From Leucoraja erinacea (Eukaryota): a DNA stretch of 64,000 nucleotides. This document shows, one piece after another, positions 2,028-60,600 of this stretch. Numbering within the stretch: the stretch's first letter is position 1; each line of letters begins with the position of its first letter. A program made the position numbers and the translations under genes. The notes beneath the pieces are model-generated. The model worked only from the letters and a program-made list of their open reading frames with translations. It did not search any database and had not been told where the DNA came from. The stretch lies in the NCBI RefSeq assembly GCF_028641065.1, contig NC_073396.1:20274001-20338000 (forward strand), in the 5' to 3' direction.

Positions 2028-2900
2028 CTCTTTGGACACAGAAGAAACTGCGGATGCTGCATTATTTGTGACTGAGATTGTATGGATATTTAAGATTGTT
2101 CCTCACGTGACAATAATAAACCTATATTTAATCATGTAATCACAAGAAACTGCGGACGCCGTTTAACTAAAAAAAAATACACTGTAAGTGTTGGAGTTGG
2201 GTCAGGCAGCATCTCTGGCGAGCATCTCTGACCCGAAACATCACCAGTCCATGTCCTCTAAAGATGCTGATTGACCCGCTGAGTTACCCTAGCACGTTAT
2301 CTTTTTTGTTTGCAAAACCTAATCTCTGCTTTTCTCGGGACCCTAACAATTGCAGTCTCTTATTTCCCCATTAACTCCTCAAGCAAAATAAATGAAGTGT
2401 AATGTGAGATGGTGGAGGGGTGATTAAAACTAGGAGACCGGGAGGGGTGGGGGGGGGGGGATGAGCACAAGGAAGAAGGGGAGAATTAGTTGCACAACGT
2501 TCCCAGTCGATAGTTTGTTTCTTGTTTATATAAAGCTGACTCATCTCCGCCTCCTCCCTGTCACCAACCCTCAGCGGCAAACCATTAATCTCCTGGAGCA
2601 GAATAAATGGATTGCGACAGGGCGAGGGGGGAGCGATGAGCAATTTGCAACGTTATTTACTGCTGCTGCTGCTGCAAACCAAAGGTCGCTGGCTCGCCTG
2701 GTCTGTCTGATTTTAAGGTGGTTTTTCTCTTGCCCACACCTTGGTCAATACCAAAGATCTTTGGTCAATACAAGGGGGACGGTGACACGAGGAGCAAAAA
2801 AACGCAAACTGCAGATGTTTTGGGGGGAGATGCAGCAGATGTGAGTGGGTTGCATTGGTACAGAGCTCTGCTGCTGTCCGCACGCTACCTTAAAACCCTG

Positions 2901-2917
2901 GGGGCGGACTTTGATCC
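2901..2917. promoter_or_regulatory. HNF4-type DR1 site overlapping a GC box, upstream of ANKS4B
   Basis: GGGGCGGACTTTGATCC; reverse complement contains GGATCAAAGTCC. Confidence 0.55.
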
Positions 2918-2959
2918 CCGGGACCGCTCTCCCTCTCTCTCTCTGCGCCAGCTCCAGCC

Positions 2960-3123
2960 ATGGGCGACCGCTATCACAAGGCGGCCCGGGACGGCTACTT
3001 GGGCCCGCTGAAGGAAGCCACCAGAAAGGACCTCAATGGCCCGGACGAGGACGGGATGACTCCCACGCTGTGGGCGGCTTTCCACGGCCACTTGGAGGCT
3101 CTACAGCTGATCTGCAGCCGGGG
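2960..3123 (+). CDS. ANKS4B: ANKS4B coding exon 1 (ankyrin repeat and SAM domain protein 4B)
   Basis: gccATGG start; [55 protein letters not shown]; 164 nt, phase-2 donor GG|GTAAGT. Confidence 0.9.
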
Positions 3124-3329
3124 GTAAGTCCCGGACCCAGGAGAGAGGAGAAAGGGGGCTTCTCTCTCCCCCAGGGGCGGGGGAGTGACGTGGCCACTCC
3201 GGCAGGGAGGGGTCCATGGATAATGCGCTCCTGGGGTAGGTAGATCCCTATGTGTAGGAAGCAACTGCACAAAATGCTGGGGCAACTCGGACCAGGCAGC
3301 ATCTTCAATAAGACTTTATTACCATCCCT

Positions 3330-5520: not shown

Positions 5521-6028
5521 ATGCCACAAAGTCACCTATTCCTTTTCTACACAGATGCTACCTGACCCACTGAGTTACTCCAGATCTTTGTGTCTTTTTT
5601 TGTACACCAGCATCTACAGTTTCACTGTGTTTCCACCTATCACTTGCCACCTCCTGCCCCACCCCTTCCCCTCACATCTCCACCATATTTCTCCACTCTA
5701 CTCCATCGCTCCAAAGAAGGGTTCCGACCTGAAACGTCGCCTGTCAATTTGTCTCTACAGATGCTGCCCGACCCTCTTGAGTTGATCCAGCACGTTGTCG
5801 CTCCGGGTTCCGGCATTTACTGCCTCGTGTGTCCCGTCTATATAATACGTGTGATGTCATGTGACTGTTTCCAGATCCCAATTTGCATCTCACTCTGACC
5901 CAGCCTCTGGGACAGAGAGGGGAGGAACCGTCCATTCCCTTACTCCACAGATGCTCAGTGGCCCGCTGGGTTTATCAATTGTTTGTTTTTTTACACATAG
6001 AGCTTGGCTGGACTGGAGACTTGGTTAT

Positions 6029-18247: not shown

Positions 18248-18510
18248 TCAAACCAAGAGGCGTTCAACGGCTTGCTGCACAGACTGGATCTGAGGCTTCA
18301 GCTGCGAGCCCTCCTTTATGGTCACGGACGATGCAATGACTGGTCTGCACACTCCGCATGCCCGCCCCAGAGCCTGCTTTGACCGCACAAAGACGTATGG
18401 CACGTTCTTGTCTTCGCACAGGAGAGGGAGGTGAAGGATGATCTCCAGGGGCTCCGCATCTGCTGCCATCACTATGAACTCTGCAATCCCTCTGTTCAGA
18501 GTCTTGGTGG
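18248..18510 (-). CDS. SNU13: SNU13 (15.5K/NHP2L1) coding exon 3
   Basis: Acceptor TTTTTTGCAG|CC; [53 protein letters not shown]...ERLLV*; 263 nt. Confidence 0.96.
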
Positions 18511-18804
18511 CTGCAAAAAAAGTGAGTCAGATCGAGCTGGAAAGGGCTGTCCTGGGGCAGTCTATGATCTCCACCCCCATCTCTGCCAACTGAACATTGC
18601 AGCTTCCATCGAGATGAATGCATGTGCTTCCCCTGGACAGTGTTTGCTCAACCCGTCCCTCCCGGAATCCACGCCCAGCCGGGGGAGACTACACCCATGG
18701 GAGGTGTTATCCCATCTTCACCCATCCCCTAGCCTGAAGGACCCCCAGAGCGCTGCTCTCACACCCATTCTGCTAACTGCAACACCCTGTCTGTCTTTAG
18801 GAGC

Positions 18805-19275
18805 AGGAGGTCCTACTGCAGTTGTACAGGGCCCTGGTGACACCGCACCTGGAGTATTGTATGTAATTTTGGTCTCCTAATTTGAAGAAGGACCTTATTG
18901 CTATTAAGGTTCACCAGGTTTATTCCCGGGATGGCGGGAGTGACGAATGATGAAAGAATGGGTCGACTGGACTTGTATTTAGAAGGATGAGAGGGTATCT
19001 TATAGAAACATTTAAAATTCTCACAGGATTGGACAGGGTAGATGCAGGAAAAATGTTCCCGATGTTGGGGGAGTCCAGAACCAGGGGTCAAAATTTACGA
19101 ATAAGGGGTAGGCCATTTAGGACTGAGATGAGGAAAACCTTTTTCACCCCGAGAGTTGTGAATCTGGAATTCTCTGCCACAGAAGGCAGTAGAGGCCAAT
19201 TCACTGGATGTTTTCAAGAGAGTTAGATTTAACTCTTACGGTTAAGGATATGGGGGGAAAAGCCGGAATGGGGTT
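18805..19275 (+). mobile_element. CR1 LINE 3' fragment; its tail resumes at 20176-20260
   Basis: RMRGYLIETFKILTGLDRVDAGKMFPMLGESRTRG. Confidence 0.85.
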
Positions 19276-20175
19276 TAGACTGTGGGCCGAGGTGCTTTTT
19301 TGTTTAAGTTTGTGACCCAAATCATGTAACTACCTGAATTTTTAACATATTGTGTAAAGATATTATAGAAATCATACCTGAAACTCGTCAAGAACAAAAC
19401 CTGCACAGATTTTTTAAATATGAGAAAACCCTCCAATTTACCAAGTAGTAATTGTCCAATCAAAGCACGTGTGACATTGCGTTGGATGCCAATTGACCAA
19501 TTATGCGCTTGTTTCATGGTCGCTAGGCAGCTCCGGGAACATGGCTGCCTCCTAATTACATTAAAACAATAGCAAGGTTTCGAAGGAATAAAGGAACCCT
19601 TAGCGAGTTAGGGTTAGGCATTTTCCTGTCAGTGGAAGATGCTTTTGCCTTCCCCCAGCCTGGCACTGCCCCAGTCCCACCATGCCGTGAGCCACACTCA
19701 GCACACTGGCAGTCAGTAGGGTTCAGTAAACGGGGGAACCCACAGGAACTGCCCTCACCCATTAATTAGGCGGGTTCAGGAGCCGGACCTCTGCGGCAGT
19801 CTCATTCAAAATATACACTCACACTTATATTCAGTATATTATTTTTATATAATATAATCATATATAATTATACATAATTTCATATTCACAAGTCACTCAC
19901 ACACACAATAATAATATATGGTTTAAATAGACAGCAGCACAGAATTAGGCTCCCATGGAGTAATATGACCATTGAACACTAGATGGCGCTAACTTGTTCA
20001 ATGTCATTTTCTAATTAGCTTAATTAATTAATGTGCAACTTTTGGCACTAACGAGTTATGACTTCTCAATTATATTTTATCTAAATCTGTGCAAAATTTC
20101 AAGTAGTTCCCGGACACGGGTCACAAAAGTCACATCAGGTCATCGAAACATTTTCTATGCTCGGCCCACAGCCTA
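19276..20175. mobile_element. Non-autonomous DNA transposon with TAG...CTA ends (Academ-like)
   Basis: TIRs TAGACTGTGGGCCGAG / CTCGGCCCACAGCCTA; splits the CR1 tail motif GGGGTACTGATTTTGG; flanks GTT and GTA. Confidence 0.7.
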
Positions 20176-20499
20176 GTACTGATTTTGGATGATCACCCAT
20201 ATTGAATATTGATGGCTCGGGGGCCGAACGGCTTATTCCTGCACCTATTCCTGTTTCTAACCTTCAGCCAACCAGTGTTAATCTGAAAAAACAGTCAGGG
20301 GACTTTGCCTGTGTAAAACCTGCCTTTCCTCCTGGCCGCACTGCTGCTACACACGAGGAAGCAGACCAGCAGCCATGTCATTGCTGAGATTGAGATCAGT
20401 GTGTTTGTTTTACTCTTTGAAACAATCGGGCAGCAGAGTGAATGGAGTTTTATGGCAGGCATCGAACAAGAGTATGTAAACCCAAACTAAGAACACTTT

Positions 20500-20970
20500 G
20501 TCAAACTGCCTGCTGCATCTCCTGGTTGCTAACCATTTTAACTCCCCTTCCCACACAAACCTTCCTGTCCTGGGCCACCTCCATTGCCAGAGTGAGGCCA
20601 CGTGCAAACTGGAGGAACAGCACTTCATAATTCCATTTGAGTAGTTTACAACCCAATGGTATGAACATTGAATTCCCCAATTTAAATACCCCTGCCCCCC
20701 CCCCCCCCACTTCCGCTTTACATTCCACTACTTTTCTCTCTTTATCTGATACCTTTTCCTCTCCAGCCTGTCACTTACTCTCCCCATCTACCTTCCCAAC
20801 CCCTCTCACTTGTATCCACCTATCACTCGTCGAACTTTGTTCTGCCCCACCTCTCTTTTCAAGCTTTCTTCCGCAACTAGTCAGTCTGAAGTGTTCTGAA
20901 AAGTCACATGTCCATTCCCTCCCCAATTGCTGCCTGACCCACTGAGTTACTCAGGTACTTTATGTTTTAA
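20500..20970 (+). mobile_element. Penelope-like element 3' fragment
   Basis: VANHFNSPSH..L.VLG.LHCQSEATCKLEEQH and LQPNGMNIEFPN, followed by the terminal repeat. Confidence 0.75.
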
Positions 20971-21039
20971 TCACAATATAGTGGTTTACGTGGACTCAAA
21001 GTCTCTCCTCCCCTCTCCCCCAGGGACCAAACCAAATAC

Positions 21040-21160
21040 CTTCATTGGCTCCCTTCCGAAGCTGCTTGTAGCTGCCAGCTTGTTGAACGAGATCCAGTAT
21101 CGTCTTTGTCAGCTGAGCATCTGCAAGGGGGTAGGCCTTTGGGTTAACTTCTTGTTCTGT
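21040..21160 (-). CDS. SNU13: SNU13 coding exon 2
   Basis: CTGCAG|ACA...GAAG|GTATTT; [40 protein letters not shown]; 121 nt, in phase with exon 3. Confidence 0.96.
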
Positions 21161-21544
21161 CTGCAGTAAAGAGACAGCAACATGTGAGTTAGTGTATGGA
21201 CAGTCCAGCAGTCAATAATTTTGACTATAATGGAAGCTACAAATCTGTAAAGTAATAATTCAACGGGAACAAAAGTCAATCCTTGCACCCATGGCAGCAT
21301 GTGTTTTTAAAGATGCAACTTTTCTATATTCTGGTAGATACAAGGAACTGCAGATGCTGGCTTATACAAAGGAGGACAAAGTGCTGGAGTAACTCAATGG
21401 GTCAGGCAGCAACTCTGGGGAACATGGATAGGTGACATTTTGGATTGAGAGCCTGAAGAAGGGTCTCAATCCGAAACATCACCGATCCATGTTCTCCAGT
21501 GACACTGCCTAACCTGCTGAGTTACTCCACTGTCCTTTCTACTT

Positions 21545-21857
21545 TTTGCGATGGTCAGCTCGACATTGATTACAAGACCTACACCAAACCCAAACCAATT
21601 AGGAGCAGACGAGGGCATTCGATCCAATTTGTGATTCCAGCTACAAAGACAGATGTGTACAGTAATTCGTTCTTCCCCCGCACAATTAAAGCATGGAATA
21701 ATCTCCACCCAACTATAGTTACCCAACCAGATGCAACAACATTTAAAGTAGCTCTTTCGTCCCAATAACCCTTTCTGGCTTAAGTCCTCCCTCCACCACC
21801 TCCAGTTTAAATTCCATTTGGAATATTTTGGAGGACCAAAAAACCAAGAACCAAGAA
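21545..21857 (+). mobile_element. 5'-truncated LINE 3' end of a different CR1-group lineage
   Basis: ORF end IPATKTDVYSNSFFPRTIKAWNNL and (CCAAGAA)n tail. Confidence 0.65.
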
Positions 21858-22099
21858 CTGAAATTGCTATCCAGTTAAGAAACATAGGAGTATATGCTGC
21901 CTGGATGAGAGAGAATTAGTTACAAGAAGAGGTTGGACAAACTTGGGATTGTTTTCTCTCGTTCATCGGAGGTTAATACAAATATATAAAATTAAGGCAT
22001 AGTTAAGATAGACAATCAGAATCTTTTCCCCTCAGATGCCCCAGAGGGCATAGCTTTAGTGTGAAAGGCAGGATTTAAAGGAGATTCGTAGAAGGAAGC

Positions 22100-22965
22100 A
22101 GAGGGTGATGGTGAAAGGTTGTTTTTCAGGCTGGAGATCTGTGAGTAGTGTGTGTCTCAGGGATCAGTACTGGGGCCCATTGCTGTTTATGGTTTATATC
22201 AATGATTTGGATGTGAATGTACAAGGTACAATTGGTAAGTTTGCACATAACACTAAAACAGGTAGTATCATAAACTATGAATGTCCAAGCAAGCGGTGTT
22301 GCACTTTAGGTGGTCAAATACTAGGAGAAATTATACAATTAATTGTCCTTAACATTATTGATGTACAGATTAATATTGGGGTCCAAGTCTATAAGATACA
22401 AGATAATTGAAAGTAGCAACACAAGTAGACCGATTGGTAAAGCACATGGTATGCTTGCCTTCATCGGACAGGGCATTGAATATAAGGGGGGGGGGGGGGG
22501 GGGTAACCGTGTAGTCATGATTTATTGGACTTTAGTTAGGCCGCGTTTTGAATATTGTACAGTTCTAGTCATCCTGCTATTGGAAAATATTAATATGGAA
22601 AGGCTGCAGAAAAGATTTACAAGGATGTTGCCAGGGCCTGAGCTTTTGGGGGAGGTTGAGCAGGCTGGGACCTTGGAGGATAAGGGGTGATCCAGAGGAG
22701 TATAAAATCATGAGAGGAATAGATCGGGTAGATGCACAGCGCCCCTTGACCAAATTAGGGGAATCAAGAACGAGAGGACATAGGTGAGGAGGAGAAGAGA
22801 TTGAATAGGAACCTGAGGGGCAACTTTTTCCACACAGGCCTATGGCCGGAGGAGATAGGTGAGGCAGGGATCATCATTTGGCCAGGTACGTGGACATAAA
22901 GGGTTTGGAAGGATATGGGCCAAACCCAGGCAGGTGGGACTAGTGTAGATGGGACATGTTGATCG
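22100..22965 (+). mobile_element. CR1 LINE RT fragment, decayed
   Basis: GPLLFMVYINDLD...IGKFA, LVRPRFEYC, MERLQKRFTRMLPG. Confidence 0.85.
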
Positions 22966-23149
22966 GCATAAGTTTAAGGAGCAGAATTAGGCCATTCGGC
23001 CCATCGAGTCTCCTCTGCCATTCAATCATGGCGAATCTATCTTTCCTTCCTAACCCTATTCTCCTGCCTTTTCCCCATAACCCTGTACATCATGGTAGTC
23101 ACCATGGGCGGGATGGACAGTACTGTTCTGTGTTTTTGCAGCCTGCTCT

Positions 23150-23440
23150 AGGGGACCACGTTGCCGCCCTGGGCCCCGGCACAGCACCGGCCTCTCCCGC
23201 AGCGCGGAGCCGGAACACGCGGCCGACCCGTGCCGCGACCACCCCCGCTCCCAGCGCCCTCACCATCCTCTCCGCGATCCGGCCCGATACCGCTGTGCCG
23301 CCGCTTCACCGAGGAAGAGCCGCTGCCGTCTAACCAAAGATCTAACCGCGCACGGGGAAGGAGGTGCCGGACAAGAGAGCACTTCCGATACCGCAGCCCC
23401 GGGTGGCGTCACGCAGCGTCTCCTCCGGCGGCCGTCAGCA
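23150..23440 (-). promoter_or_regulatory. SNU13 CpG-island promoter
   Basis: CpG-rich; minus-strand CTCTTCCTC (23311-23319, TCT/TOP-like), ETS site CGGAAGTG (23380-23387), CRE-like TGGCGTCA (23404-23411). Confidence 0.65.
23264..23266 (-). CDS. SNU13: SNU13 coding exon 1 (ATG only)
   Basis: GAGAGGATG|GTGAGG inside the CpG island; 3+121+263 = 387 nt gives 128 aa, the known SNU13 length. Confidence 0.75.
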
Positions 23441-24242
23441 ACTGCAGCCCCCTATTCCAACCCCAACCTGGGACAGGAGCCAAGTGTCGCTGCTGCTGGA
23501 AACATCTTAATCAAAGATCTTATAGCTCCGTCTTAATGGATAGTCGGACAATGCAATCTGACCTGCAGTGATGTGGGGAGATGGCAGGAAAAAAATGTTC
23601 AAGGAAGATCAGTGATGATCTTGTTGAATGGTAACCCACTCCTTCAGAATAAAATGATGTACCTTTAGAAAGGATATGAGGATAAACTAAAATAAATCAT
23701 TATTCACTGTGATTACATATTCCGTTGTGCTGCAGCAAGTAAGAATTTAATTGTTCCATCTGGGGCATATGACAATAAAACACTCTTGACTTGAGGTGAA
23801 ATTTCTTTAGTCAGAGGGTGGTAAATCTGTGGAATTCTTTGCCACTGAAAGCTGTGCAGGGCAAGTAATTTGATATGTTCAAGGCAGAGGTAGATAGATT
23901 CTTGATTAGTACGGGTGTCAGGGGTATGGGGGAGAAGACAGGAAAATGGGTTTGAGAGGGAGAGACAGATCAGCCATGATTGAATGGCGTAGACTTGATG
24001 GGCCGAATGGTCTAATTCTGCTCCTATAATTTATGAACACACCTGCTATTTCAATGTCCTTACATTGAGTCTTTCTATTTCTCTTTATATGGAGATTCAT
24101 TAAAGCATAGATTAGTTCACAATAGAACAATTATACACTACTGTACTTGATGGAAGTGGGAAGATCTCTTGGAGCTGCTCTGCAGACATATTGAGCAAAG
24201 ATCCTGTAGGATCTTTGATATTGAGTGTCCTAACCAGATGTC

Positions 24243-24457
24243 TCGCCATATTGTGTGTATCCCGAACACGATTCTCCGCCATATTGAGTGTGTCCCGGAA
24301 CCGCCGGGCCGCCATATTGAGTGTGTCCCGGGACCGCCGGGCCGCCATATTGAGTGTGTCCCGGAACCGCCGGGCCGCCATATTGAGTGTGCCCCGGAAC
24401 CGCCGGGCCGCCATATTGAGTGTGTCCCGGAACCGCCGGGCCGCCATATTGAGTGTG
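24243..24457 (+). repeat. 33-bp tandem repeat upstream of UQCRC2
   Basis: Unit CCGCCATATTGAGTGTGTCCCGGAACCGCCGGG starts at 24276, 24309, 24342, 24375, 24408, partial at 24441, degenerate at 24243. Confidence 0.95.
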
Positions 24458-24538: not shown

Positions 24539-26388
24539 GTGAGTGTCCGCACCTTGGGGCGGGCGGTTGCCATCGCGCGGCGCCCGTGCTTTCGGGCCGC
24601 AGGCGGAGGAGAGACCGGTGACCCGGCACCGTGATCTAGGCCTGTGCCCGCCCGCCGCCGAGCACAGGATGGGTCTGCACTGCCATGACGCTGGAGCAGG
24701 CTCTCCTTCACGGCCGGCTGCTCGGCCCAGCGGGAGCCCTGGCTTGGGATAGCACCTAGCCTCTGCTTGCCGACTGAAGGTCATCGGCCCGCAGGCCGCG
24801 GCCGCCTCCAGCAGCTGCCGGCCCAACCTGTCCTTCACACTGACATTGCAGAGGTGCCCTCCCGTGGTTGTTATTCCTCTATGTACACCATATAAACTGT
24901 GATCGCAGGTGATCAGTTGAAGATTTGGTTCTTCCAAACCAAATGATAAAAATGTCATCGTTCTATCTGGGAGATATGACAATAAAACACCCTCGACTCT
25001 TGAAATGCAGACATGATATACCCTAGATGCTGCAATCTGAAGCAACAAACTGTCTCGACCGTTCGTCTGCATCCCCAGACGCTGCTCGACCCGCTGACTT
25101 CCCCCAGCAGCTCTTCTTTTTTGCTCTAGTTTCTTGTGCTTCTCCCTTCCTTGTGCCTGGCCGTATCTCGCTCCGTGTCCGTGTCGGAGGGGAGGGGGTG
25201 CAGGATGGGTGCAGGATTGTCGGAGGGGAGTGGGTGCAGGATTTTCTGGAGCTTCTTCCTAATGGCAATATTTTGTATGTTCAAAGTTAATAAGGAAGAC
25301 TAGGCAGGAATATGAAAATGATCACCTGCAGCTGAGACAAATAAAGATGGTTTGTGTGGAATTTGGTAAAATAATAGCAATATGAAGACGCCATGACCAA
25401 AGCAAAGATACTAGAGCGGAGACGGAAGCCGGTTACGGAAATGGTGCTAAAGATTACCCATGACCTACTACGACTTTTTCGTCGAGTGGACTATCTAGGA
25501 TCTTTGTGCTCTTCCATACCTCTAGTTTTCCCTCTCCCGTCTCAGTCTGAAGAAGGGTTTCGACCCGAAACGTCACCCATTTCTTCTCTCCAGCGATGCT
25601 GCTTGTCCCGCTGAGTTACTCCAGCATTTTGTGTCTATCTTTAGTGTGAACCAGCATCTGTAGTTTCTTCATACACACTGTAGTTATTTACCTCATTTAT
25701 GCCCCTCATGATTTCATACACCTCTATAAGGTCGCCTGCACGCCAGGGAGAAATGTCCTAGCCTATCCAGCCTCTTCTCTACACAAACAGTTGAGGCAAC
25801 CTCTTCATAAATCTTTTATAGCATTCTTTCCCATTTTATGACTTCCTTCCTATATCGAGGTGTTGGTATTTATTATTGTCACATATACCAGGAAACAATA
25901 GAAAATCTTTGTTTTGCGTGCTCACGGAAAATCTTACTATACATGTGTATAATCAAGGTGGTGTAAAAGAGAGAGACACCGAGTGTAGAACATAGTGTTA
26001 CAGCTACAGATAAAGTGAAGATTTTAAAGCCTGCCACGTTGATTGGGAGATCAGAATCAGATTACAGCAGGAAAGAAGTTTGGGTGAAAATTATTTTCCT
26101 CACCAATCTGTTAATTATCCTCAACGACGGTGTTTTAGATATTTAGTCTTAGTTACAGTCTAAGTAGGAATATATGATTTAATTTAGAGATACGGTGTGG
26201 AAACAGGCCATTTGGCCCACCGTGTCCGTGCAGACCAGCGGTCACCCGTTCACACTAGTTCTATCCTGGACACTAGGGACAGTTTACAGAAGCCAATTAA
26301 CCTACAAACCTACATGTTTTGGGGATGTGGGAGGAAACCTTTCAGGGGCCCTCAATCCATGCTGACTCTTGTGAATTTTTTATTTCAG

Positions 26389-36973: not shown

Positions 36974-39069
36974 TGCCCTCCATAATGTTTGGGACAGACC
37001 CGTCGTTTATTTATTTGCCCCTGTAATCCACAATTTGAGATTTGTAATAGAAAACCACATCACATGTGGTTAAAGTGCAATTTTATTTTATTAAAGGGTA
37101 TTTTTATACATTTTGGTTTCACCATGTAGAAATTACAGCTGTGTTTATACATAGCTGTGTTTATTTCATGAGTACCGACTGGTGGCCCTCACCTCGGTAG
37201 TCATGAAATGCTTAGAGAGGTTGATCAAGAACCATATCTGCGCCTTCCTCCCTCGCAACATGGACCCGCTACAGTTCGCATACCGTCCAAACAGATCCAC
37301 GGACGATGCGGTCTCCCAGGTTCTGCACACCGTTCTCTCTCACCTTGACAGCCAGATGGGGGGGGGGGGGGGGGGGGGGGGGGGGCTACGTGAGGATGCT
37401 GTTCATTTACTTCGGTTCAGCCTTCAATACGATAGTCTCCCACCAGACCTGCTGAGAAGCTGCTGGAATTGGGGCTTAACACTCCCCTGTGTGCCTGGGT
37501 CCTGGACTTTCTCACCGCCAGGCCCCAGGTAGTCAAGGTGGGAAGAAATACATCAAACACCCTCACCCTGAACACAGGATCCCCCCCCCAGGGTTGCATC
37601 CTCAGCCTCCTATTGTACTCCTTGTACACAAGACTGTGTGGCCAGGTTCAGCTCCAACTTTATAATCAAGTTTGCTGATGACACTGTGGTGGTGGGCCTG
37701 ATCTCCGATAATAATGAGAAGGCCTACTGGGAGGAGGTGGCTGATCTGGCACTCTGGTGTCAGGACAACAGCCTCCTCTTGAATGTCATAAAAACTAACG
37801 AGCTGATTGTGGTATTGGGGGCTAGTTTTGGTGGCCCTTCAGTTTTCTCTTCAGCAAATAAAAGGCATGCTCAATTGGGTTCAGATCAGGTGATTGACTT
37901 GCCCACTGATGAATTGACCATTTTTTAGCTTTGAAAAACTCCATTGTTGCTTTAGCAGTATGTTTGCGATCATTGTCTAGCTGTAGAATGAACTGCCGGC
38001 CATTGAGTTTTGAGGCATTTGTTTGAACTTGAGCAGATAGGATGTGTCTAAACACTTCAGAATTCATTGTGCTACTACCATCAGCAGTTGTATCATCAAT
38101 GAAGATAAGTGAGCCAGTACCTTCAGCAGCCATACATGCACAGGCCATAACACCCCCATCACCGTGTTTCACAGATGAGGTGGTATGCTTTGGATCTTGG
38201 GCAGTTCCTTCTCTCCTCCATACTTTGCTTTTACCATCACTCTGATATAAGAATCTTCATTTCATCTGTCCACCAGACCTTTTTCCAGAACTGTGGTTGC
38301 TCCTTTAAGTACTTCTTAGTAAACTGTAACCTGGCCATCATATTTTTGCGGCTAACCAGTGGTTTGCATCTTGCAATGTAGCCTCTGTATTTCTGTCCAT
38401 GAAGTCTTCTGCAGATAGTGGTCATTGACAAACCCACACCTGACTCCTGAATAGTGTTTCTGATCTGTCGGACAGATGTTTGGGGATTTATCTTTATTAT
38501 AGAGCGAATTCTTCTGTCAGCTGTGGAGGTCGTCCTTGGCCTGCCAGTCCCTTTGCGATTAGTAAGCTCACCAGTGCTCTCTTTCTTCTTAATGATGTTC
38601 CAAATAGTTGATTTTGGTAAGCCTAAGGTTTGCCTGATGTCTCTAACAGTTTTATTCATGTTTCTCAGTCTCATAATGGCTTATTTGACTTTCATTGGCA
38701 CAACTTTGGTCCTCATGTTGATAAACAGCAATAAAAGTTTCCAAAGGTAATGGAGAGACTGGAGGAAAGACTAGGTGCTGAGAGCTCTCTTATACCTACA
38801 TTAAGGAGGCATTTAATTACAATTACAAACGCCTGTGAAGCCATGTGTCCCAAACATTATGATGCCCTGAAATGGGGGGACTGTGTATAAACACAGCTGT
38901 AATTTCAACATGGTGAAACCAAAATGTATAAAAATACCATTTAATAAAATCTGACAATGTGCACTTTAACCACATGTGATTTTTTTTCGATTACAAATCT
39001 CAAATTGTGGAATACCGAGGCAAATAAATAAATGATGGGTCATTGTCCCAAACATTATGGAGGCGACTG
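36974..39069 (-). mobile_element. Tc1 transposon (DD34E) with disrupted transposase
   Basis: Long IR/DR TIRs; transposase from ATG 38716 with HTH (LGLPKSTIWNIIKK, GRPR), WWTDE, QLDNDRKH, SPDLNPIE and 34 residues between D and E; early stop and frameshift; TA at 39070-39071. Confidence 0.93.
37170..37815 (+). mobile_element. Rex1/Babar LINE RT fragment nested in the Tc1
   Basis: ALTSVVMKCLERL...[36 protein letters not shown]. Confidence 0.9.
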
Positions 39070-42852: not shown

Positions 42853-43425
42853 AATGCAACAACGAGTAAGAGGAAAACAAATAGCTAATGTTTAAATCTA
42901 AAGAATCGTTACAATCCGAACACCTTGTGCTCCGTTATATTGGCAAATCATGAACTACTTTCCTTGGCATTGTGCGGAGCTTTTGTTGAAGACAGTCCTT
43001 TAGACTTGAAGGAAACAATGGCCTGTCATACAACTGAAAAGGGTGAAGAGTCTCACCTGTTTCTAAATGTACACATACACAGGCCAGTGACAGAAGTTAA
43101 CAAGAGATCCCTTGGTAATGGGAAAACAGTAAATGCCGGATGGCTAACAGATTTTGAAATCAAAACAGTACAATGTGGTTCATTTCAAGGGGCAAAATGT
43201 TCATGCGAGTCCTTATTTGGATCGGAGTTTGCAAGGTGCTTAATACCACAAAATGGGAAAAGAGAAGATGCAAAGAAATGTATAAAGATGCAAGAGTCGG
43301 GAGGGCAACCATCAGAAGTCCTTTACATACGTCCCTTAAAAGGTGAAAGTATGTTCACAGATAGAATCCTCTCATACTGAATGATTCAGAGGAAAATCGA
43401 GTGATGGAGAAAGGACTAGGGTGTG

Positions 43426-56460: not shown

Positions 56461-57039
56461 AGCAGATCAGGTGAGCCACTCACCGCTGAATACCTGCGCT
56501 TGTAGCCACGTTTCTTATGTGACTGATTCAGTCGGATTTCTGGTCAATTGTGACCCTTAGGACATTTAAATTGGAGGACTTGGAAATAGCATTGTCATGG
56601 GTGGGTTGTTATACACCCTCTTCTTAGAGATGATCATTGCAGTACTGTTAGATGTTCTCCCTCCACATCCACCCTGTCAATCCCCCTTTGGACCTCACAC
56701 TGTTGAATAAGGAATAGGACTGAGATGAAGAAAAACGTTTTCACCTAAAGAGTTGTGAATCTGTGGAATTCTCTGCCACAGAACTAAGTGGAGGTCAATT
56801 CACTGGATGTTTTCAAGAGTGAATTAGATTTAGCTCTAAGGGCTAACGGAATCAAGGGATATGGTGAAAAAGCAGGAACGGGGTACTGATTTTGGATGAT
56901 CAGCGATGATAATATTGAATGGCGGTGCCGGCTCGAAGAGCCGAATGGACTACTCCTGCACCTATTTTTCTATGTTGTTAATGTTCCAGATGAGTTACCT
57001 GACTGCATTTGAGTTCCAGAGAGGGTCCTGGCCGCTGGT

Positions 57040-57557
57040 TACAACCAGTCACCCTCCCGGGCTGTGATAGTGGGATCTTGCCATGCCGGGGCACGAGCGG
57101 GCACAGGGCGCGGAAACAACAGGTGGCGGCCGGCGGGCGCGCGCGCGCGTGACAACGACTGGGCGGACGAAGAGCGCAGGCGCGGGCGAGGGGGCAAGCT
57201 CGCGCGGCCCCGCTTGCGCGCGCGCCCCCGGTCTCCCAGCGCTGGCGGCGGCGCGCACGCAGCCGCTGCGGTTGCCGCCGAGTGAATGGCCGCCGTCCGC
57301 TAGTGAGACGCTACCGGGCACGAGCGGCTGAGACGCGGATCGGTGTCGCCTCTTCCCCCCCACCACCACCATCACCACCACGCACACACAATGGAGGGAG
57401 TAAACTGAGGGCGGGGTCGTCGAGCGAGTCCGCCGTGCTCGCTGTGAGCTGAGGGGCCGAGCCCGGGGGCCAGCTGAGGCGATGCTCCGCGGCACGGGCC
57501 GGGCGCTCGCCAGCCGCCGCCGTCTGGCTGCCGAGTGAAGGCGGCCGCGCTCCCGCC
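57040..57557 (+). promoter_or_regulatory. MOSMO CpG-island promoter and 5' leader
   Basis: Very CpG-rich, with GCGCGC runs and GC boxes, directly upstream of the MOSMO ATG. Confidence 0.75.
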
Positions 57558-57663
57558 ATGGACAAACTCACCATCATCTCAGGCTGCCTCTTCCTGGCGG
57601 CAGACATCTTCGCCATAGCCAGCCTGGCCAACCCAGACTGGATCAACACCGGGGAGTCCGCAG
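57558..57663 (+). CDS. MOSMO: MOSMO (modulator of Smoothened, C16orf52) coding exon 1; later exons not found in the window
   Basis: gccATGG; MDKLTIISGCLFLAADIFAIASLANPDWINTGESAG, nearly identical to the vertebrate MOSMO N-terminus; 106 nt; G|GTCGGT. Confidence 0.95.
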
Positions 57664-60600
57664 GTCGGTGCCGCCCCAGCTCTACCCTCACTTCTCATCC
57701 CACCCAACACCCTACCTTCATCCCATCCAGTACCCACCCTCAGCTCCTACTCTCACCCCCAACCTCAACCCAGTTCCTCCCCTTACCCATCCCACCCCCT
57801 CACCTTCGTCCCCAGCTATCCTCATCGCACCCAGCTCCTACTCACTCCCCATCTCCCACACATACCCCGCCGCTGCACTAACCTCCCCCTTACCCTGCTG
57901 CCCCGGCCATCCTCTTTTCCCACCCCGGTTATTATATTCCTCCTCCTGTCCATCCCAGCTGTCACAGCGCCCCACCATCCACTCTAGTTGTCTTATTCCT
58001 CCCCTCATCCATTCCGTGGTCATATTCCCTCATCCATGCCGTGGTCATATTCCCTCAACCCTCCCCATACTTGGCTGTCATGTCCTTCCTCCCCATTCAC
58101 CCCAGTTGTCACATGTCCCCTACATTCACCTTGGCTGCTTCCTCCCCATTCATGCCAGCAGTTCATATCCTCCCCACATCCACCCTGGATGCTCACACCT
58201 CCCTTTGCCTCTGCGCCCACCTCCCCACCTATTCATGCTGCGTTTACCTCCACCCTGTCTGTTACTACATAACCTCCCACCCTCCATGACTGTGCCATAG
58301 GTCATCCTGCTTCTGGGCATTCTTTAATCTCATTTTTATCACTCTCCAACCCACCCCAGACTCCCTCCTGTGTCCCCCAAGTCTGCCTGGCTCCTACCCT
58401 TTTGTTCACCACAATTTCCCCCATGCCAGTTTCCTCTTTGACACATAAATTAAGCTTGTTAGTGGCAATCATAACTTTTTGACCCGTCAAGTATATTTTC
58501 TCTGTTGCAACTTATGAATGTGGGGTGTTTTTTGGTGGCGGTGGGGTTAGAAGAAAATCGTGCTGTGGTGTATATATGTTGGAAAGAAACACTTCATTGG
58601 TTAGTGAAAGGACAATAAAGAGTCATTTGGTTTCAAATTTTGCAATGCCTGCTCTAATTTCAGGTTGAGAAAAAAATCCTTTGCTTTTGGATTTAGAAGG
58701 ATGTGCTGCCTATTTGTGTCGTGTAGTTGTTCAGTATATTTGTAACAAGATTTTCTTTGTTTGCATTTTAAAGCCCATCTTGTCACACTTACACATTAGC
58801 ACCTAAACTGAGTTGTAAAGTATTTCTCATTTGTATAAAAGGAACCTTCAGGCAGTCATCATAGTTGGTTGCAATTAGAGATGTGTTAGATCCCACTTTA
58901 GAAAATTAAAACCAATTGTTTTGTTTGCTGAATTTTTGAAATGCTATATTATGTAGAGGTCTGAAGGAAAACAGGAACAATTTAATAAGGTGTATATGGT
59001 ATGACTTGGATGTAACCATGCACTTGGGTGAGACCCCATAAGGATGAAATAATGCTAAATAGAGTCATAGAGTAATAGTGTGGAAACAGGCCCTTCGGCT
59101 CAACTCGCCCACACCGGCCAACAATGTCCCATCTACCCTGGTCCCACTTGTCTTCACTTGGTCCATAACCCTCCAAACATTTCTAGTCCATGTACCTGTC
59201 CAACTGTTTCTTACACGATGATATAGTCCCAGCCTCGACTACCTCCTCTGGCATCTTGTTCCATACACCCACCACCCTCTGTGTGAAAAGGTACCCCTAG
59301 GATTCCTATTGAATCTTTTCCCCTTCCCCTTGAACCTGTGTCCTTTGGTTCTCGATTCCCCTACTCTAGGTAAAAGACTCTGTATCTACCCGATCTATTC
59401 CTATCATGATTTTGTATACCTCCATTAGATCTCCCCTCATCTTCCTCCATTAGATCTCCCCTCATCTTCCTCCATGGAATAGAGACCTGCTGGATATATT
59501 TGATACTTGAATAGTTATACCAAGCATTTGAGCGGTCAGTGTGTTTGTGATTCAAAAGATGAAAAGCTAGCGTTGCTTCCTGTCTCCTGAGGATTTGGCA
59601 GTAAAATTGTTCTTAAATTTATTTGAGGAACTGGAGTTAACTGTAACTTAGAACAGATGGTGGCAGCTGATTTGTAACCCTGTGGCCTTCGGTTCAAGTA
59701 GGCTGAAGATCTTATGCAAATTTGCATGCTCCCTATTCTGGTTGTGCCCCCTATTCTGGTTTGAGTACGTAACCTAGGGTAATGAAGAGTTGCAGTTTTT
59801 CGGATGATGGACTCTGGTGCTCTCATTTTAATTTAAAAGATCCAAAGCTTCTGTGTAAAGGAAAGGAACAGATGTTCATCCCACTAACCAGATTACTTTT
59901 CTGTTTGTGTGATCTGGGGTCGCACAAATTGGCCACAAGGAATTGTCAAAAAAACAATAGCAAAGCACAAGCACACACTTTGGATTGTATTCAGGATTTG
60001 AAGGTGCTGTATAAATTAAGTTTGTATCTGGCTTCTGTTTTGCATTATTAGCAATCTCTTCCAAGCTTTTTCCATTACCACCTGTGTTCTCTACTAAGAT
60101 AATTAATGGGCTCTTGAGAGAATTGAGAAATGTTCATGCAAGTTACTGTTTTGTGCTGATATTTGGCAGGTTAAACATTGCATTAGTTCATCAGACCCAA
60201 CCCAAAACATAATCTATCCATTTCCAAAGATACTGAATGACCCGTTGAGTTATTCCAACACTTTCTGTCCTTTTGTGTAAACCAGCATCTTCAATTGTTT
60301 GGTTCGATATCATCAGTTCAGTATGCTTTTTGACTGTTAACTTATGCCAATACCATTTGGTGAAATAAGCTAATCAGCAAATGTTAATTTGTAGTAGAAA
60401 ATATCTTAATGCATCTAATGAACTTGGAGGTTAATACTGTACTGGAGCAGTTGCATTCCAAATTCTTTGGAACTAAACAGTATCCAGATTACTGATAAAT
60501 TCTGATACTGTTAACCGTTATAGATGTTAAGGTGATACTTTGTAATGTGATATAAATGCTGTTTTGTTACTGTTTTTATGTAAATAATTCCAGTACAGCT

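Follow-up and report, generated by a model that had tools for sequence, protein, structure and literature searches.

A probable transposon excision scar upstream of ANKS4B in Leucoraja erinacea, with P-like features and traces of the same end nearby

The upstream region of the ANKS4B gene of Leucoraja erinacea harbours a short palindrome flanked by two copies of the same 8-mer, which raises the question of what kind of event produced it. The initial annotation of the window, i.e. the whole stretch of 64,000 nucleotides analysed here, had proposed that an element of the P superfamily inserted at this position and was later excised. We analysed the anatomy of this mark, looked for the same end elsewhere in the window, in other sequence collections and in related organisms, and weighed the various mechanisms that might account for it.

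The mark upstream of ANKS4B

The mark can be read directly from the window as GTCAATAC (2744-2751), CAAAGATCTTTG (2752-2763) and GTCAATAC again (2764-2771), and the perfect 8-bp duplication around a 12-bp palindrome described initially is thus exact to the letter. Owing to a left flank that ends in TTG and to the GT....AC form of the 8-mer, both features are longer than first described: the direct repeat measures 11 bp (2741-2751 being identical to 2761-2771), the palindrome 16 bp (2750-2765). The features of this region are as follows.

2744-2751, plus strand: left copy of the target-site duplication (TSD), 8 bp (GTCAATAC), a perfect repeat retrieved by an unbiased scan.
2752-2763, no strand: 12-bp palindrome, putatively two transposon-end stubs overlapping at the self-complementary AGATCT/GATC; the same end is found at 23335, 23512, 24196 and 25403 and in the metagenome contig L005.
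2764-2771, plus strand: right copy of the TSD, 8 bp, kept in related organisms B, D and E and altered near its last base in organism C.
2960-3123, plus strand: coding exon 1 of ANKS4B, with ankyrin matches and a start that agrees with the NCBI ANKS4B protein.

The unbiased scan was blind to motifs: it collected 8-bp direct repeats flanking inserts of 8-60 bp with terminal inverted repeats (TIRs) of at least 6 bp over the 64 kb. It yielded two sites, at 2744 and 24188, both bearing CAAAGATC ends, and no site in any of 40 block-wise dinucleotide shuffles. Lowering the inverted-repeat threshold to 4 bp brought in three more sites, with unrelated ends.

The downstream gene is ANKS4B: exon 2 is 100% identical across 329 residues to the protein labelled ANKS4B of Leucoraja erinacea at NCBI, whose start also agrees with exon 1 in the window. 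The mark is located 189 bp upstream of the ATG at 2960, in line with the distance of about 190 bp given initially. A TATA-like word is present at 2527, upstream of the mark, which may therefore sit in the 5' UTR rather than in the promoter.

Other traces of the same end in the window

Five traces of one end were identified in the window, namely the 12-bp palindrome described above, a 22-bp palindrome, two half-deleted scars and a 104-bp remnant. Those other than the ANKS4B mark are listed below.

23327-23346, plus strand: half-deleted scar consisting of CGTCTAAC, the stub CAAAGA and then TCTAAC, with one or two TSD bases lost; a class found in Table 1 of PMC2895639.
23504-23537, minus strand: half-deleted scar consisting of one 14-bp end, the spacer CGGAG and the TSD minus one base; its inner junction is that of L005.
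24188-24225, plus strand: scar with a perfect 8-bp duplication (ATATTGAG) and a 22-bp palindrome, retrieved by the unbiased scan.
25403-25506, plus strand: MITE-like remnant of 104 bp with CAAAGAT at both ends and devoid of a TSD.

The word CAAAGATC occurs 11 times in the window, at 9 distinct sites, for 3.0 occurrences expected, a number reached in none of 100 shuffles. At four of these nine sites the preceding six letters recur within 45 nt, compared with 24 of 1,254 for control hexamers. The family sites that bear duplications are those at 2744, 23327, 23504 and 24188. The 12-bp and 22-bp forms, together with the 33-bp form of L005, are nested lengths of a single end. We did not retain as family members the occurrences at 5583 (inside a dispersed repeat), 33013, 46622 and 52244, which lack a duplication, or a CAAAGA match at 43271, which lacks the family end.

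Both scars reported initially besides the ANKS4B mark, at 23504 and 24188, were recovered, the second TSD copy of the former lacking its first base. The scar at 23327 was absent from the initial annotation; it precedes the probable SNU13 start by approximately 60-80 bp and belongs to the same class as the Drosophila P product described as 'TSD + CATGA + TSD lacking its first base' among the junctions tabulated in PMC2895639 (Table 1). The 8-mer of the 24188 scar also belongs to the 33-bp unit of the neighbouring tandem repeat: it is found once in six of the seven downstream units and twice around the insert. The downstream units can be read as an internal control for the empty site; caution is warranted, since the spacing of the two copies, 30 bp, resembles that to the next unit.

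For the 104-bp remnant, we found no second copy in the window and no Rfam match in a search of the 22.5-26 kb region that covers it, and attempts to rebuild its flanks from other repeat copies were unsuccessful. CAAAG is directly duplicated at its left end (25398-25409), and on the right it directly adjoins a truncated dispersed repeat; both features may reflect an adjacent deletion.

The initial annotation had also pointed to a bias of these scars for promoters. All five traces are in 500-bp windows with CpG observed/expected ratios of 0.66-0.87, for a median of 0.39 and with 17% of windows reaching 0.6. Nevertheless, the five traces represent only two independent regions, and no family trace was found in the CpG island at 57-58 kb. 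The promoter bias is therefore weak.

The same end outside the window

A 19-nt end pattern was built from the copies in the window and run on viral contigs, metagenomes and prokaryote genomes. It gave no match in the viral contigs, eight in the metagenomes and four in the prokaryote genomes. A second end was absent from the vicinity of 11 of these 12 matches (seven of the eight in metagenomes, and all four in prokaryote genomes within 40 nt), and the seven metagenome matches without it showed no likeness to the window.

The remaining match is L005, in which, at 2954-3005 of the metagenome contig, the 19-mer is directly followed by the reversed end, head to head, forming a 33-bp hairpin (z -7.6). 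This arrangement, seen in 1 of the 12 pattern matches, has a probability of about 0.004 of occurring by chance over the 12. The first 19 letters of the L005 end were set by the search pattern itself; the inner junction (CGGAG-CTAT) is that of the 23504 scar, to which 12 of the 14 letters beyond the pattern are identical. The TSD of L005 is imperfect, with 7 of 8 letters and an offset of 3 bases. With a GC content of 39%, an Ig-domain exon that is weak (E 3e-4, short of the Pfam cut-off) and no similarity to the window by blastn, the contig looks like it comes from another, unrelated animal. The 3 bases that follow the hairpin in this contig reverse-complement its left flank, an outcome expected of fold-back synthesis, and a 9-bp tandem duplication is present in that flank.

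A shorter, 15-nt pattern matched 106 viral loci. In three of them, the pattern was accompanied at 3.3 kb by an inverted match of 10 bp; it had no TSD and was identical in all three, and we attribute it to chance. No long element was found among 118 pattern loci.

The mark in related organisms

To these searches we added a comparison with related organisms. Among 24 runs under five organism labels, 20 hold part of the 2500-3130 region, and for each of organisms B, C, D and E a single run was compared (4 of the 24), using contigs, which drop rare alleles. In B, D and E the orthologous contig runs across the mark, and its gap letters total only 9, 6 and 12, respectively; a 20-bp absence is therefore impossible in all three. 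In organism B, one C is missing at 2751. Organism C is represented by a single contig of depth 3.7, which has 38 other letters in 608 and is thus approximately 6% diverged. It carries 624 letters across these 608 positions, with 30 gap letters that arithmetically correspond to 23 inserted and 7 left out. As the left-out letters are all located at 2863-2869 and 2918-2939, organism C keeps the mark as well. It does so with an A2757G substitution, changes at 2771-2775 and 13 inserted letters somewhere between 2757 and 2894. The A2757G substitution turns the core into CAAAGGTC, which resembles a word at 2680.

An empty site with a single 8-mer and no insert had been expected in related species; all four relatives have the short form instead, and neither an orthologous empty site nor a full-length element was seen in any of them, up to approximately 6% divergence. 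Since it is present in all four, the mark predates the lineages of B to E. On these alignments the mark at 2744 is old, and the description of this site as the product of a recently mobile family does not hold.

Similar marks are also found at other loci of the relatives. Non-orthologous contigs with the same flanks in B, D and E match only 2739-2773 (35 letters with 2 differences), and another one, in organism B only, matches just 2741-2777 (37 letters with 5 differences). The remaining off-locus matches correspond to a microsatellite (two records) and to a coding stretch (one record). In a random genome with an assumed size of 2.2 Gb, 4e-5 matches like that of 35 letters would be expected, and 0.05 like that of 37 letters. 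If 12-bp scars arose independently, two loose matches would be obtained with approximately 170 to 25,000 scars, depending on target bias, and the tight match would then be expected in 5-8% of cases. In simulations, loose off-locus matches outnumber tight ones by approximately 25-40 to 1, whereas one of each was seen. The tight match may therefore be a copy of the 2744 mark itself rather than an independent scar.

Both off-locus sites have additional features. In the 2741-2777 match of organism B, the loose ends on both sides repeat GGTTATTAC words, in which six of eight letters are like the TSD at 2744, and this target may have been hit more than once. In the 2739-2773 match, a single locus common to B, D and E, the downstream loose end harbours a second near-palindrome of the CAAAG..CTTTG type.

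Origin of the mark

We consider it likely that the 28-bp mark is an old scar, now fixed, of the excision of a DNA transposon of the cut-and-paste type that had CAAAGATCYTATAG ends. The cut was probably P-like, and the mark is present in all four relatives. The transposon origin proposed initially gains weight from the existence of a family of end remnants between target duplications and from the presence of the same end in L005, and the resemblance of the junction types to published Drosophila P excision junctions speaks for a P-style repair. In Drosophila, cutting by the P transposase leaves the donor site with 3' tails of 17 nt derived from the element's ends, and repair gives rise to products in which a TSD, stubs joined at microhomologies and a second TSD follow each other, including the TSD + CATGA + TSD-minus-first-base form (PMC2895639, for the junctions that it describes).

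By analogy, insertion at 2744 would have duplicated 8 bp of target. The transposase would then have cut inside the element ends, so that long single-stranded stubs stayed attached to the donor DNA, as suggested by the stubs of 6-19 nt at the four window sites and in L005. Annealing of the stubs at the self-complementary AGATCT followed by end joining would yield the 12-bp form, a joint at a TATA-type word the 22-bp form, and a joint near the tips of near-full tails the 33-bp form, while joining of a stub to the TSD would produce the half-deleted forms at 23327 and 23504. The allele, whose presence in the relatives is observed, would have been fixed before their lineages split.

Three other explanations were considered. 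The same family may have left its stubs through abortive gap repair or the collapse of a hairpin MITE, the element then being a hAT or belonging to another superfamily with 8-bp TSDs. We regard this as rather unlikely, even though the nT....An pattern given for hAT elements is present at three of the four window scars and an internally deleted piece, the 104-bp remnant, exists nearby. The strong 33-bp hairpin could also shrink to 22 and 12 bp via deletions at the same microhomologies, and the 13 letters inserted in organism C are compatible with such a process. Stubs of 6-19 nt fit a long overhang, but gap repair or the collapse of a hairpin MITE could produce them for any superfamily, and two of them extend to position 19, past the 17 nt known for Drosophila P. 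However, all TSD-flanked inserts seen, at few sites, are at most 33 bp long, as a fixed overhang predicts, which counts against gap repair and MITE collapse, since gap repair should leave varied and longer remnants. Besides, the hairpins of hAT excision form on the flanks (PMC3878927), and plain hAT excision should therefore leave no element ends, contrary to what is found at these sites.

A scenario without any transposon appears improbable. A local duplication with a 20-bp period would have created the palindrome and two GGTCAAT words, selected as sites of the ANKS4B promoter; by the HNF consensus patterns, these words would be of the HNF1/HNF4 type. The extension of the repeat to 11 bp, the retention of the mark in all four relatives and the conversion of the core to CAAAGGTC in organism C, like the word at 2680, fit this scenario, and human ANKS4B is described as being under HNF1A and HNF4A regulation (PMC7387654). 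Nevertheless, the same end occurs with different duplicated targets at three other window sites by housekeeping genes and in L005, and retention at approximately 6% divergence is expected even without selection. The two GGTCAAT words and the CAAAGGTC form of organism C might represent a later co-option of the scar. Least probable of all, in our view, are tiny mobile or copied units of 12-33 bp inserted as such rather than derived from a larger element. The inner junction common to 23504 and L005 and the locus that matches the mark at 33 of 35 letters would agree with such units, but P transposase is reported to require internal binding sites beyond the TIRs (PMC7776569), for which 12-33 bp are too short, and insert lengths vary from site to site as those of repair products do.

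Superfamily assignment and comparison with known systems

The excision scar that we favour probably works like a P footprint, and we treat the skate end as a putative member of the P superfamily. The TSDs are consistent with the 7-8 bp of P elements, as they are perfect 8-mers at 2744 and 24188 and partial at 23327 and 23504. CAAAGAT ends are common to the five traces and L005, and the ends of P and of the zebrafish element Pdre2 likewise begin with CA. Within the target, T and A are found at positions 2 and 7 in three of four window scars, and GT..AC is present at 2744, a pattern shared by hobo; the left flank of L005 likewise has the nT....An form of hAT targets (PMC3878927, PMC2577343, PMC3276498). 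The flanks of the scars lack the outer AT...AT of the 14-bp P motif (ATRGTCCGGACWAT). Unlike in hAT flank-hairpin footprints, the inserts consist of element-end sequence common to several sites and not of inverted flank. No P, THAP or hAT domain was detected with Pfam in 150 of the 159 open reading frames of at least 55 codons in the 15.0-36.5 kb region or in 14 chosen ones elsewhere, and the analysis recovered neither a long element nor one that combines both ends with a TSD. Because neither a transposase nor a long element was found and the target pattern also suits hobo and other hAT elements, P membership stays putative. The only transposase detected by Pfam is a broken one of the Tc1 type (37822-38680, minus strand; HTH_Tnp_Tc3_2 and DDE_3), unrelated to the scars.

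The closest parallels are the Drosophila melanogaster P junctions as tabulated in PMC2895639 (Table 1) and discussed in PMC7776569, in which the 8-bp TSD is kept and stubs of both ends are joined at microhomologies. They include a class with one stub joined to the far TSD and one TSD base lost, and P elements share with the mark at 2744 the GT....AC target and the location near gene starts. Unlike the Drosophila system, the skate end is CAAAGATC instead of CATGATGA and its stubs extend to 19 nt instead of 17; the skate scars have AT-rich TSD cores, are natural, fixed and common to several organisms, and no transposase was found for them.

The view that vertebrate P transposase is mainly known as the domesticated THAP9 is overstated, as zebrafish is described as carrying Pdre in approximately 50 copies that are bounded by 13-bp TIRs and flanked by 8-bp TSDs (bioRxiv 10.1101/2024.03.22.586318; PMC7776569, PMC8230255). 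Pdre2 and THAP9 resemble the skate family in being vertebrate and P-like, with short TIRs that begin with CA, 8-bp TSDs and internally deleted copies (bioRxiv 10.1101/2024.03.22.586318). In contrast, the Pdre2 TIR given there, CATACCTGTCAAC, is unrelated to the skate end beyond CA, and Pdre2 is known from elements and not from scars. The 104-bp piece is comparable to the short non-coding P-end derivatives represented by the P-MITEs of Anopheles gambiae (PMC1562414) and by BuT5 (PMC3698922), but these are described as at least 200 bp long and multi-copy, with TSDs and known masters, whereas the skate piece has no TSD and no master in the window. As for hobo, Hermes, Ac/Ds and Tol2, these hAT elements share the 8-bp TSD and the nT....An or GT....AC preference with the skate scars, and differ from them in that their footprints, as published, are built of flank sequence and not of element sequence.

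In the literature covered, we found no description of the skate end or of P scars in skates, and Repbase or Dfam may already catalogue the family. We tentatively raise a broader possibility, which we would not presume to be correct: a skate family of the P superfamily, whose end is common to an unrelated invertebrate, might have left hundreds to tens of thousands of stereotyped 12-, 22- and 33-bp scars concentrated at CpG-island gene starts. Such scars would document, as fossils, a staggered cut of 17-19 nt and the microhomology repair of a vertebrate germline; some of them, including that of ANKS4B, may be co-opted HNF-type promoter words. Knowledge of P-type footprints comes for the most part from laboratory excision experiments in flies. 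If the family is real, natural fixed scars would allow the geometry of the cut, the choice of target and the pathway of repair to be deduced for a vertebrate P-like transposase even in the absence of a living element. They would also provide clean presence/absence markers for skate phylogeny and illustrate how a transient transposon can lengthen gene starts by 20-40 bp.

Neighbouring genes

The cluster of scars at 23.3-24.2 kb is located between SNU13, on the minus strand, and a gene for an M16 peptidase, on the plus strand. We take the latter to be UQCRC2, an assumption that extends to the positions of its first exon. SNU13 (15.5K; 18251-23270, minus strand) separates ANKS4B from the UQCRC2-like gene, with which it is arranged head to head. 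CRYM was considered as the neighbouring gene and rejected, the minus-strand gene being SNU13 instead; as CRYM is presumably the neighbour at the human ANKS4B locus, synteny would differ in the skate. The gene start in the CpG island at 57000-57700, which bears no family trace, presumably corresponds to a MOSMO-like first exon. Just upstream of the M16-peptidase gene, the 33-bp tandem repeat spans 24244-24457 in 6.5 copies, and each unit contains CGCCATATTG, which we assume to be a YY1-like word.
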